11,531 nt of DNA, taken from assembly GCA_044352465.1 (NCBI GenBank), contig JBILDU010000091.1:1-11531 (forward strand), read 5' to 3'. The notes under the pieces were generated by a model. The model did not search any database. It saw only the letters and a program-made list of their open reading frames with translations, and was not told where the DNA came from. Below are positions 1-2,130 of the stretch, piece by piece (positions within the stretch are counted from its first letter, which is position 1; every line of letters starts with the position of its first letter). A program made the position numbers and the translations under genes. This stretch comes from Bdellovibrionota bacterium. Its GTDB lineage: Bacteria; Bdellovibrionota_C; UBA2361.

Positions 1-134
1 AAAACGACTCCACCGTGGTCACGCTTTCGCATGATCCAACCAGCAAGGGTCACCGGAGTACCAACGTGTTCCGAGCGCAGTTCGCCGCAGGTATGGGAGC
101 GATACGAACTTTTTAGATTGATGGCGTCAGTCAC
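1..134 (-). CDS. aspS: Bacterial-genre aspartate--tRNA ligase, probably non-discriminating tRNA(Asp/Asn); 5' end only, runs off the left edge
   Basis: Not in the ORF track. Manual minus-strand translation from GTG at 134-132 gives [44 protein letters not shown](F/L). This matches the bacterial AspRS N-terminal OB-fold pattern R-[ST]-H-x-C-G-E-L...V-T-L-x-G-W...R-D-H-G-G. TAAGG lies 7 nt upstream. His in RDHGG is the residue associated with non-discriminating bacterial AspRS (E. coli D-AspRS has Leu). Confidence 0.93.
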
Positions 135-141
135 AAGAAAG

Positions 142-146
142 CCTTA
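142..146 (-). promoter_or_regulatory. Shine-Dalgarno-like site for the bacterial-type aspS
   Basis: Minus strand reads TAAGG-ctttctt-GTG (7-nt spacer). Confidence 0.6.
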
Positions 147-232
147 TTGAGGATGAAACCGTTTTAAAATCAGACTCTTCAGGCCTGCCACCTCAGCTCG
201 ACCGTTCTCTCACCGTCGGCCGAAGCCATCGC

Positions 233-266
233 CACCGTTCGTTCGCTATCGGGCGACCGAACGGTG
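233..266. repeat. Inverted repeat / strong hairpin between the two aspS genes
   Basis: CACCGTTCG (233-241) pairs with CGAACGGTG (258-266). After one mismatch, TCGC (243-246) pairs with GCGA (253-256) around a 6-nt loop. No U-tract on either side. Confidence 0.7.
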
Positions 267-300
267 CGGGGCACAACACGGGGTAGCCCCTACTGCCCCC

Positions 301-2130
301 CTACTCCTTCGCAAACCGTCCGATCTTCGCCTCAGTGAGTTTTTTGAGATCTGCGCTACTCATGACCAGCGACTCGGTCGGCATACCGCAGTTGAATGCG
401 ACACGGGAATGGGCAAACACCCGTTCGTCGAACCAGGTATCAAGGTTGAGCAGGTTTCCAAACGGCGGAACCCCTCCAACCTCGAGACCAAAACGTGTCT
501 TAATCGCCTCGATATCTTCGAACTCGCACTTCTCTCCAAGTGCGTTTGCGACCTCCTTCATATCGAGCTTCATGTGGGAAGGAACGTTCACCTGAAAGTT
601 TTTCTTGGTCGTCTTGCCACGGAGGATGATCGCCTTCACTCCCTCCTCCATGAGAGTCCCCCGCACTCTCGCCGAGTCGGCCGAGGTGGGAGTCGCCTCA
701 TGAACAAGGTGCTGAAACTCCATCTCTTCTTTTTTGAGCTGACGCACGATCTCGTTCCGGAGATTCTCCGCACCGAAAAAAATCTTAGCTTTGAGCCGAT
801 TACCCGCAATCCGTTTCGGATCGGAGGGGAATAGCGAGGCCTCGCGGACGTTCTTAAGCTTGAGTATCGTCATGGTGAGACGCTCAAGCCCCAGCCCAAA
901 ACCGCCGTGGGGGGGCATGCCGTGCTTGAAGATACTTAGGTAATCGCCGAAGTCGGCGGGATCGAGCCCCTTACTCCGAATCCCCTCCACCATCGAATCG
1001 TAGGTGTGTCGGCGCTGACCACCGGAGGTAATCTCGGTACCGGCGCACAAAAGATCGAAGGTATTGGTGAGCTCCGGTTCCGCGTCGTTCGGATAGGAGT
1101 AAAACGGGCGCTTCTTGGTCTTCCAGTCGGTGATGAAGATGCAGTCGGTACCAAATTTTTCAAAGGCGTATTTACAGAGCTCCCGCTCAGCGTTCGGACT
1201 CAGATCATCCTCAGCTCGTTCATCGAGTCCGGTGCGCTGAAAATAGATCTCTTGAGCATCCTGAAATGACACACGGGGGAAAGGGACATTCTCCGGGACC
1301 TTGATGACATCCCCGCCCAACGCTTTTATCTCCTCGGCACAATGCTCGTGGAGATATTGCATGATAAATTTAATGGCCCCCTCCTCAATGTCGAGGATCT
1401 CATGCCAGTGCTCAAAAAACCCCATTTCGAATTCGAGTTGTTTCCCTTCAGTAAGATGACGGGCGGTATTCGAGTTCTCTGCTCGAAAGAACGGCATCAG
1501 GGCGAATACCCGCTCATTAACGCCGACCATCATCTGCTTATAAAGCTGACTACTCTGAGCGAGCGTTGCCGGGTAGCCGAAGTAATCAACCTTAAAAAAC
1601 TCGGCGCCTCCTTCCGAAGAAGCCCCGATAAGATTCGGAGCAAAATACTCAACAGCTCGCACCCGGTCGTGCATGTAGAGTCGGTAGGCGTGGGCGATAT
1701 CCGCCTGGATCCGAAAAACTGCTTGAATTTGGCGATTCCGCAGCGCTATGGGCCGATGGTCTAGAATTGTATCGATGTCGACGTTGAGCTCGTGTTTGTA
1801 GTACTCCAGCGGCGGCACGTCGACCACCGGAGACTCAACGAGAATTTCCGGTTCGACAAGTTCGGCGCCAAGTTCGGCTTGGGTTGTGCGCTGCACCGTG
1901 CCGGTGACGGTAACGACGGTGCCGATCTGAAGACTGGAGATCTTCCTTAACTCCTCTTTGCTTTGGATAACTACCTGCGCGATACCCGCCCGATCTCGGA
2001 TGATCAAAAAGCTTATTTTCCCCAGCGCACGAAGGTTATGATACCACCCCCGTATCGTCACGCGCTGCCCCGCATGAACTGCAAGCTCGGCCGATAAAAC
2101 TCGTGTCACGTCACTCTCCGCTGTTGTCAT
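301..2130 (-). CDS. aspS: Archaeal/eukaryotic-genre aspartyl-tRNA synthetase (AspRS2-like, class IIb) fused to a C-terminal YbaK/ProXp deacylase domain, 609 aa
   Basis: OB-fold (VTIRGWYHNLRALGKISFLIIRD), flipping loop SEGGAE, LAQSSQLYKQ, motif 2 FRAENSNTARHLTE, RPFYS, EITSGGQR, motif 3 GMPPHGGFGLGLERL. No GAD insertion; core of ~445 aa. YKQ and SGGQR point to Asp rather than Asn/Lys. Confidence 0.9.
   Translation of the reverse strand: MTTAESDVTRVLSAELAVHAGQRVTIRGWYHNLRALGKISFLIIRDRAGIAQVVIQSKEELRKISSLQIGTVVTVTGTVQRTTQAELGAELVEPEILVESPVVDVPPLEYYKHELNVDIDTILDHRPIALRNRQIQAVFRIQADIAHAYRLYMHDRVRAVEYFAPNLIGASSEGGAEFFKVDYFGYPATLAQSSQLYKQMMVGVNERVFALMPFFRAENSNTARHLTEGKQLEFEMGFFEHWHEILDIEEGAIKFIMQYLHEHCAEEIKALGGDVIKVPENVPFPRVSFQDAQEIYFQRTGLDERAEDDLSPNAERELCKYAFEKFGTDCIFITDWKTKKRPFYSYPNDAEPELTNTFDLLCAGTEITSGGQRRHTYDSMVEGIRSKGLDPADFGDYLSIFKHGMPPHGGFGLGLERLTMTILKLKNVREASLFPSDPKRIAGNRLKAKIFFGAENLRNEIVRQLKKEEMEFQHLVHEATPTSADSARVRGTLMEEGVKAIILRGKTTKKNFQVNVPSHMKLDMKEVANALGEKCEFEDIEAIKTRFGLEVGGVPPFGNLLNLDTWFDERVFAHSRVAFNCGMPTESLVMSSADLKKLTEAKIGRFAKE
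304..762 (-). other. YbaK/ProXp (INS-superfamily) aminoacyl-tRNA deacylase domain, YeaK/ProXp-y-like, in frame with AspRS2
   Basis: ~153 aa after the synthetase core. Contains HEATPTS..SARVRGT....GVKAII (conserved Lys at 634-636), GxxxP loop GGVPPFG (457-477) and AFNCG...S. The RGT....G.KA and AFN.G patterns resemble E. coli YeaK as I recall it. Confidence 0.85.

Follow-up and report, generated by a model that had tools for sequence, protein, structure and literature searches.

An archaeal-type aspartyl-tRNA synthetase fused to a putative aminoacyl-tRNA deacylase domain adjoins a bacterial-type aspS in a Bdellovibrionota genome

Introduction

A second aspartyl-tRNA synthetase (AspRS) is rare in bacteria according to PMC4206432, where 18 genera possessing an asparaginyl-tRNA synthetase (AsnRS) and GatCAB, and lacking an asparagine synthetase, are considered and the five genomes with a second AspRS all belong to Deinococcus-Thermus. 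This study deals with a stretch of 11,531 nucleotides (nt), in the following referred to as the window, from a Bdellovibrionota bacterium of lake water (GCA_044352465.1, contig JBILDU010000091.1). It harbors a gene for an archaeal-type AspRS with a C-terminal aminoacyl-tRNA deacylase domain and, downstream on the same strand, the beginning of a bacterial-type aspS. The window is the entire contig C67 of the genome G000, which comprises 3.13 Mb in 170 contigs (completeness 94.9%, contamination 0.41%). A sequence-only reading of the DNA had recognized two AspRSs of different ancestry in tandem, separated by a spacer of 166 nt, with the second starting at a GTG at position 134. These coordinates proved correct, and the Pfam and NCBIfam matches agree with them. 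As that reading had also stated, the second gene was overlooked by the open reading frame (ORF) track; it runs off the end of the contig. The fused enzyme is, somewhat more probably than otherwise, an AspRS that proofreads its own product, as judged from sequence comparisons.

The closest described counterpart is AspRS2 of Thermus (1n9w, 3kfu). Its fold is the same (Foldseek template modelling score, TM, to target 0.91–0.93), an archaeal-genre AspRS likewise occurs beside a bacterial one, and the genome likewise has AsnRS and GatCAB (gatB being the subunit searched here). The window enzyme differs in approximately 170 additional C-terminal residues, which form a linker and the deacylase domain, in QSSQ instead of QSPQ, in Glu233 instead of the motif-2 Asp, and in a Glu instead of the Pro of the anticodon loop. 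Furthermore, the absence of AsnA and AsnB that goes with two AspRSs in Thermus and Deinococcus was not observed, since the host has two asnB-family matches, and in most hosts of the fused gene no other AspRS was found.

For the C-terminal domain, several relatives are known. E. coli YeaK, a "mischarged aminoacyl-tRNA deacylase" in RefSeq, has the motifs HE...RGT...G-KA and AFN-G in common with the fused domain; it occurs as a separate protein that works in trans on several tRNAs, in contrast to the window domain with its covalent tie to an AspRS. We take YeaK to be ProXp-ST1, a trans-editing factor for Ser/Thr-tRNA. YbaK (a Cys-tRNA(Pro) deacylase; 1dbu, 2dxa) and ProX/ProXp-ala (2cx5, 1wdv) share the fold, the catalytic Lys and the Gly-x-x-x-Pro loop; in comparison to YbaK, the fused domain remains under the equivalog cut-off and gives a weaker profile score than with YeaK. 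In a review (among PMC7373986 and PMC3367201), ProXp-ST1/ST2 are described to clear Ser-/Thr-tRNAs of several synthetases, including the class IIb lysyl-tRNA synthetase, and tRNA binding by YbaK is described to require its synthetase. Bacterial prolyl-tRNA synthetase (ProRS) also combines a class II synthetase with an INS-superfamily deacylase in one polypeptide. Its INS domain interrupts the catalytic core and acts on Ala-tRNA(Pro), whereas the window domain is appended after AspRS motif 3, and the INS domains of ProRS are structurally more distant from the fused domain (TM to query 0.62–0.70). No description of an AspRS-YbaK/ProXp fusion was found in full-text literature searches.

Results and discussion

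Synthetase core of the fused protein

The fused protein (Table 1) exceeded the respective cut-offs of the two archaeal-type AspRS equivalogs of NCBIfam (NF003483, 465.2 bits, cut-off 353; TIGR00458, 378.9 bits, cut-off 368.4) and stayed below those of both asnS models and of the lysS and bacterial aspS models. In Pfam it consists of an N-terminal OB domain and a class II core without GAD insertion, as in archaeal/eukaryotic-type AspRSs. The closest solved relative by sequence is T. thermophilus AspRS2 (1n9w, 322.5 bits over residues 10–441), and the full-length predicted model (predicted local distance difference test, pLDDT, 86.4) resembles the archaeal-type AspRS structures 3nel, 1b8a, 1wyd and 1n9w in Foldseek. 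The fusion itself, already claimed from the letters alone, was confirmed by the tRNA_edit match.

Table 1. Features of the window and of the genome to which it belongs.
Feature	Position	Strand	Basis
First 44 codons of bacterial-type aspS, GTG at 134, cut by contig end	1..134	-	NF001750; RDHGG
Spacer between the AspRS genes, 166 nt, two strong hairpins right after the stop codon	135..300	-	fold
Fused gene, 609 aa, archaeal-type AspRS with C-terminal aminoacyl-tRNA deacylase domain	301..2130	-	ORF, Pfam, NCBIfam
tRNA_edit (INS/YbaK-superfamily) deacylase domain, residues 477-598	337..702	-	PF04073
Linker, residues 438-476, includes DPKRIAGNRLKAKIFFG	703..819	-	alignment, many invariant columns
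Class II D/K/N catalytic core, residues 120-437	820..1773	-	PF00152, 240 bits
OB-fold anticodon-binding domain, residues 24-98	1837..2061	-	PF01336, 52.8 bits
203-aa protein	2140..2751	-	
Giant ORF	3097..11529	-	
Remainder of bacterial aspS	C66:1672-3273	-	TIGR00459
Other PF04073 protein, 168-aa free-standing ProX-like ORF, KTKNLFLRD motif	G000:C140:27581-28087 (L015 1450-1956)		genome scan
asnS	window genome		608.8 bits, above cut-off
gatB, only GatCAB subunit searched (not gatA, gatC)	window genome		606.8 bits
asnB family, two genes, 675-690 aa (not all such proteins are true asparagine synthetases)	window genome		450 and 392.7 bits, above cut-off
tRNA(Asp) and tRNA(Asn), one each; tRNA(Asn) with U1-A72	window genome		

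Residue conservation was followed in an alignment of 63 fused sequences with identities down to 33%. The arginines of motifs 2 and 3 as well as Q192, S193, Q195 and K198 are invariant in all 63, and the synthetase core looks active by this measure. In the segment QSSQLYKQ, the Pro of the QSPQ found in solved AspRSs is replaced by Ser194, while the Gln, Ser, Gln and Lys residues are retained. Glu233 occupies a motif-2 position at which solved archaeal-type AspRSs have Asp; the AsnRS of the window genome has Glu there as well, and motif 2 of the fused protein reads AsnRS-like. Among 150 representatives at 50% identity, the Glu variant occurred in 13, and none of the 11 of these with a readable QS-x-Q had the Pro. 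Asp was present in 102 representatives, 98 of them with Pro.

Deacylase domain and linker

The tRNA_edit domain was detected with 69.6 bits in Pfam (PF04073, cut-off 25.5) and with 73.1 bits in the genome scan. Its predicted model (pLDDT 93.7) shows the YbaK/ProX fold (Foldseek E ~1e-12; TM 0.78–0.89 to 1dbu, 2cx5, 1wdv and 2dxa), the TM values being 0.78/0.83 for YbaK of H. influenzae and 0.82/0.89 for APE2540. Lys499, Gly548, Pro555, Pro556, Gly558, Phe579 and Gly582 are invariant in 63 of 63 fused sequences, and GGVPPFG represents the Gly-x-x-x-Pro loop. Lys499 lines up with the Lys of E. coli YbaK in the alignment and is likely the catalytic lysine. From these residues, the domain looks catalytically intact.

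Comparison of the domain profile with E. coli YeaK gave an hhalign score of 118.8 (probability 99.2, E 1.2e-19, 150 columns), and comparison with E. coli YbaK a score of 70.8 (E 2.3e-11). BLASTP of the domain against YeaK yielded an E value of 6e-14 at an identity of only 22–23%, and the YbaK equivalog TIGR00011 was matched with 51.2 bits, below its cut-off of 153.25. By profile comparison, the domain is thus nearer to YeaK than to YbaK, the two E. coli INS paralogs compared.

Residues 438–476, which link the domain to the synthetase core, are nearly invariant across the fused family. Near relatives of the domain that are free-standing were hardly found: the 67 matches shorter than 334 aa were nearly all contig-end fragments of fused genes, and the best apparently free-standing relatives showed at most 52% identity. 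The Protein Atlas offered only generic tRNA_edit clusters for the fused domain. Beside the fused gene and the ORF on contig C140, no further PF04073 protein was present in the window genome, and the PF04073 scan matched no ProRS with an INS domain. In the order to which the host belongs, PF04073 is patchy, with any match in 54 of 91 genomes. A free-standing deacylase that substitutes in genomes without the fusion was considered and rejected, because the distribution of PF04073 in the order showed no replacement pattern.

Distribution of the fused gene and of bacterial aspS

A search with the C-terminal 168 residues among proteins of 334–1066 aa gave 972 matches. Among the 120 matches listed, 116 contained all three Pfam domains and four shorter ones were devoid of the OB domain; those with names were Parachlamydiales/Chlamydiales metagenome-assembled genomes (MAGs). 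Altogether, 239 stretches in species-representative genomes encode a relative, of which 80 loci were kept, and core and deacylase stand in one frame in all 80. Four of these loci are identical to genes in genomes of the host's order, and the host is accordingly Bdellovibrionota-like rather than chlamydial.

In the host's order (91 genomes), the fused gene was detected in eight genomes, namely all five of family f1, G001, G021 and G022, and bacterial aspS in 81. Five of the eight carriers (G087, G088, G089, G021 and G022; completeness 79–93%) had no bacterial aspS that could be found at E <= 1e-80, and G001, like the window's genus, holds both genes. Within family f1, only the window's genus has bacterial aspS, which was absent from the three other genomes at E <= 1e-40. 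Of the 83 non-carriers, 78 possess bacterial aspS; the five without both genes are 55–87% complete.

A similar picture was obtained in the chlamydial order around G091, for which 151 genomes with a requested completeness of at least 85% were analyzed. The fused gene occurred in 35 of them, each with one archaeal-type match, and bacterial aspS in 127: 22 genomes had only the fused gene, 13 both, 114 only bacterial aspS and two neither. Of the 35 carriers, 34 have AsnRS, as do 101 of the remaining 116 genomes. Four genomes of this order have both AspRS genes on a single contig, and the distance between the two is 56 kb or more in each.

With no other AspRS found in 27 of its genomes, the fused enzyme presumably charges tRNA(Asp) and would be a housekeeping AspRS there. 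These counts (22 of the 35 chlamydial-order carriers and five of the eight in the host's order) do not fit the earlier suggestion of a fused paralog available for a specialized role. That no bacterial aspS was found in most carriers also suggests that the fused gene replaced it.

A second, independent kind of dual AspRS exists in the same order. Four loci of family f19, genus g34 (L026–L029; genomes G042, G057, G059 and G069) encode an unfused archaeal-type AspRS of ~440 aa, 36–39% identical to the core of the window enzyme, in genomes with bacterial aspS.

Origin of the fused gene

After loci with a stop codon or fewer than 560 aa had been left out, 92 rows were collected. Four duplicates and roughly half the chlamydial loci were then removed, and a quick tree was calculated with 55 rows. 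In it, a single clade (SH-like approximate likelihood ratio test, SH-aLRT, 99) comprises the 40 chlamydial-type loci, and the eight rows of the host's order form a basal grade of weak resolution; the outgroup branches are long and the root is unsure. Because of the patchy distribution and identities of 65–75%, transfer between Chlamydiota and the host's order, in either direction, appears clear from these comparisons. Acquisition from Chlamydiae in particular was not supported by the tree: nesting within the chlamydial clade would be expected and was not seen, and with the own-order rows basal the direction is not fixed. Two MAGs titled Legionella or Legionellaceae (L096, L123) also carry the fused gene and form a tight pair inside the chlamydial clade, either by transfer among amoeba-associated bacteria or as mis-binned contigs.

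The downstream bacterial-type aspS

The sequence-only reading had named a full aspS of ~590 aa with a GAD domain as the point to be checked. The 44-codon piece in the window matched NF001750 at positions 3–37 (38.3 bits). The remainder lies on contig C66, where TIGR00459 was matched at 1681–3258 of the minus strand with 550.7 bits (cut-off 373.85), covering model positions 59–584; the window piece covers positions 3–35. This match is the sole bacterial-type aspS in the window genome, contains a GAD domain (31.9 bits, cut-off 23.4), and C66 ends 16 bases beyond it. C66 and C67 have no bases in common, so the gap of roughly 45 nt is not closable from the assembly. In the genus-mate G090, a continuous aspS of 593 aa is 84% identical, and the window pieces align to its residues 1–44 and 60–593; about 15 residues of the window aspS are therefore unsequenced. 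The downstream gene is a complete bacterial aspS and neither a fragment nor a pseudogene. A Logan contig (14,326 nt) of run X1, which may be the source sample, covers window positions 1–2200 with its positions 8920–11119 and extends ~3.2 kb past the first base of the window, whereas only 907 letters of a contig of run X5 (1,082 nt) fall on the window (positions 1–907).

The spacer between the two genes folds with -81.2 kcal/mol (z = -3.3). Rfam gave no match in window positions 1–3200 at E <= 1, and a scan for consensus promoters and terminators revealed no terminator and only two promoter-like sites, at 1361–1394 inside the fused gene and none in the spacer. A regulatory RNA in the spacer was discarded as a candidate after the null Rfam scan and the unhelpful promoter/terminator scan. 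The corresponding spacer of G090 (L048 3508-3907), with 400 nt unlike that of the window in length, contains several inverted-repeat copies of the type GGAGGGCTCGAC...GTCGAGCC, resembling repetitive extragenic palindromes (REP-like). The spacer features of both genus members give no support for an operon. None of the 20 sequencing runs listed with this DNA was of RNA.

Adjacency and retention of both genes

Adjacency of the two genes, the second point raised for relatives, holds within the genus and not beyond it. Bacterial aspS adjoins the fused gene in one of the 80 related loci (L048, which is G090) and not in the other 79, a downstream flank of at least 3.6 kb being available in 59 of the 80; the three further family genomes without bacterial aspS have already been mentioned. 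In G090, the fused gene is followed by the spacer and aspS, and homologs of the upstream 203-aa gene and of the C66 ORF beyond aspS are also present. At the six remaining loci of the fused gene in the order, none of the window neighbors occurs, except for a 27%-identical paralog in G021. Conserved synteny was accordingly dismissed, the neighborhood being common to G090 only.

The bacterial AspRS of the genus is 60–64% identical to those of most other families in the order, as expected of a resident gene. Between G000 and G090, the fused gene shows a nonsynonymous divergence (dN) of 0.042 and aspS one of 0.105, and both genes are intact; synonymous divergence (dS) is >4 and saturated, which makes dN/dS ratios unreliable, and only dN and intactness were used. 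Low dN and intact genes at saturated dS point to long-term co-retention of both AspRS genes and indicate that both have been under strong purifying selection since the members of the genus diverged. A division of labor between the two AspRSs within the genus is possible.

Asp/Asn discrimination and genome context

Bernard reportedly described in 2006 the His of RDHGG and a Gly in the L1 loop as determinants of non-discriminating (ND) bacterial-type AspRSs, and Feng is said to have named in 2003 a His and a loop Pro for the archaeal type. The bacterial copy had been read as non-discriminating on account of its RDHGG; the ND-type His is indeed present. At the L1-loop position, where Gly had been anticipated, Glu was found in the aspS of both the window and G090 (Gly in Mycobacterium Asp/Asn ligases, Lys in E. 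coli), and the bacterial copy thus matches one of these two determinants. The N-terminal domain of the G090 aspS aligned best with the Mycobacterium enzymes, which are Asp/Asn ligases according to the PDB depositors and have the same RDHGG. In the fused enzyme, His31 of the OB domain is aligned to the His of Thermus AspRS2 and to a Trp of the Thermococcus enzyme, and the anticodon-loop position is Glu (Pro in Thermus AspRS2, Lys in Thermococcus). Most chlamydial fused members have Asn instead of His at the position of His31.

Examination of the genome for asnS and gatCAB, as had been proposed, detected asnS and gatB (Table 1). The best glnS match in the window genome had 31 bits, far under the cut-off, and no asnA was found in it. 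The U1-A72 pair of the single tRNA(Asn) is needed by bacterial GatCAB according to PMC4206432. ARAGORN also reported an 87-nt tRNA-Glu(TTC) at G000:C60:40623-40709 (minus strand), which is ~10 bases longer than the other tRNA-Glu genes and might represent an unusual tRNA or a false prediction.

Probable function of the fused enzyme

The architecture and its conservation make self-proofreading the explanation that, by a modest degree, is probable rather than not. The fused AspRS would charge tRNA(Asp), and the tethered deacylase might hydrolyze a wrong product held on the same enzyme, i.e. edit in cis. By kinship to YeaK, the likeliest target would be a small polar amino acid, e.g. Ser or Thr, on tRNA(Asp); Asp-tRNA(Asn) is a less probable target. 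The fused gene seems to have taken the place of bacterial aspS in most carriers, and the window's genus has kept the resident aspS directly downstream. Several observations weigh against this explanation. We know of no AspRS that misacylates enough to need editing. The monomer model (predicted TM score, pTM, 0.69) places the deacylase at no fixed position on the core, and residues 442–449 have a pLDDT below 50; the geometry for cis editing is therefore not established. A PF04073 domain is missing entirely from 37 of the 91 genomes of the order, which means that close relatives can do without the deacylase function. The 13 representatives with a deacylase domain, out of 150, comprise six Glu variants, four canonical Asp enzymes and three unreadable fragments, and unfused Glu-variant enzymes were found too (e.g. 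P0126, P0131 and P0135); the fusion is thus enriched on the variant core and not bound to it. Finally, the absence of bacterial aspS in draft genomes means that it was not found, not that it is proven to be absent.

Alternatively, the two genes might be plainly redundant, with a horizontally acquired fused gene midway through the replacement of the resident aspS and without distinct roles. The complementary distribution of the two genes in both orders would fit this, as would the three other family genomes with the fused gene and no bacterial aspS found, the resident-like identity of the genus's bacterial AspRS, and the different neighborhood of the fused gene in every other lineage checked. 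A brief overlap is, however, hard to reconcile with the long-term retention indicated by two intact genes with low dN at saturated dS, and 13 of the 35 chlamydial-order carriers as well as G001 also retain both; redundancy is therefore regarded as rather unlikely. A split as in Thermus and Deinococcus, where this arrangement is described in PMC4206432, would make the archaeal-type enzyme an ND-AspRS that feeds Asp-tRNA(Asn) to GatCAB and the bacterial one the discriminating housekeeping AspRS. The necessary surroundings are there, i.e. asnS, gatB and one tRNA(Asn) gene whose product has the U1-A72 pair; among solved structures, the non-discriminating Thermus AspRS2 is the closest relative, and His31 equals its His. 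Nevertheless, such a split is unlikely: with two asnB-family genes, tRNA-dependent Asn synthesis is not obviously needed, the ND-type His occurs in the bacterial copy too, the fused enzyme has Glu at the loop Pro of AspRS2 and is the sole AspRS found in 27 genomes, and the deacylase domain is left unexplained.

The deacylase may also be a general trans-editing factor, e.g. for Ser/Thr- or Cys-tRNA, that rides on AspRS for co-expression. Its free-standing relatives act in trans on the products of several synthetases, as the review (among PMC7373986 and PMC3367201) states. The modelled flexibility of residues 442–449 would permit such a role, and the ProX-like ORF on C140 is the only other PF04073 protein in the genome. 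Yet a linker that hardly varies points to a defined contact, domains of this family occur on more than one AspRS backbone (four canonical and six variant cores), and near relatives of less than 334 aa are, with few exceptions, pieces of fused genes, the apparently free-standing ones being at most 52% identical; a passenger of this kind is thus considered improbable. Quite doubtful is the idea that the deacylase hydrolyzes Asp-tRNA(Asn) and so makes a non-discriminating archaeal-type AspRS discriminating by editing instead of by anticodon reading, with the two enzymes of the genus splitting the duties for tRNA(Asp) and tRNA(Asn). If true, it would make the enzyme safe beside AsnRS and explain the repeated displacement of bacterial AspRS. 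It is very improbable that the second AspRS serves for resistance, or as a reserve, against a natural inhibitor of AspRS. Duplicated synthetases often confer inhibitor resistance, and this general experience is all that speaks for it; no gene for biosynthesis or immunity can be recognized in the flanks read (neither of the two upstream ORFs, for the 203-aa protein and the giant one, matches a family), G090 alone shares the neighborhood, and in most carriers no AspRS other than the fused one was found.

AspRS is regarded as an enzyme that needs no proofreading, and an intact editing domain fixed to it would point to an unrecognized fidelity problem in Asp/Asn decoding. With the fused and the ordinary enzyme apparently coexisting under selection, the window's genus may serve as a natural system for what the fused one does beyond an ordinary AspRS. 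The complementary distribution would furthermore illustrate neatly how a foreign gene of different ancestry can displace an essential gene of translation.

Neighboring genes

The gene of the 203-aa protein lies directly upstream of the fused gene, with a gap of 9 nt; the protein has a signal-peptide-like N-terminus and no Pfam or NCBIfam match. G090 encodes an 83%-identical homolog at the corresponding position, and no homolog was found at the remaining loci of the fused gene. The giant ORF is 5'-open and encodes at least 2,735 aa (2,810 to the contig end). It has no Pfam match and shows Ala/Glu/Arg-rich, coiled-coil-like stretches, a hydrophobic Gly/Ala/Val segment near residue 600 and a Pro/Glu-rich tail. 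In G090, its C-terminus is matched only weakly, with 37% identity over 192 residues.

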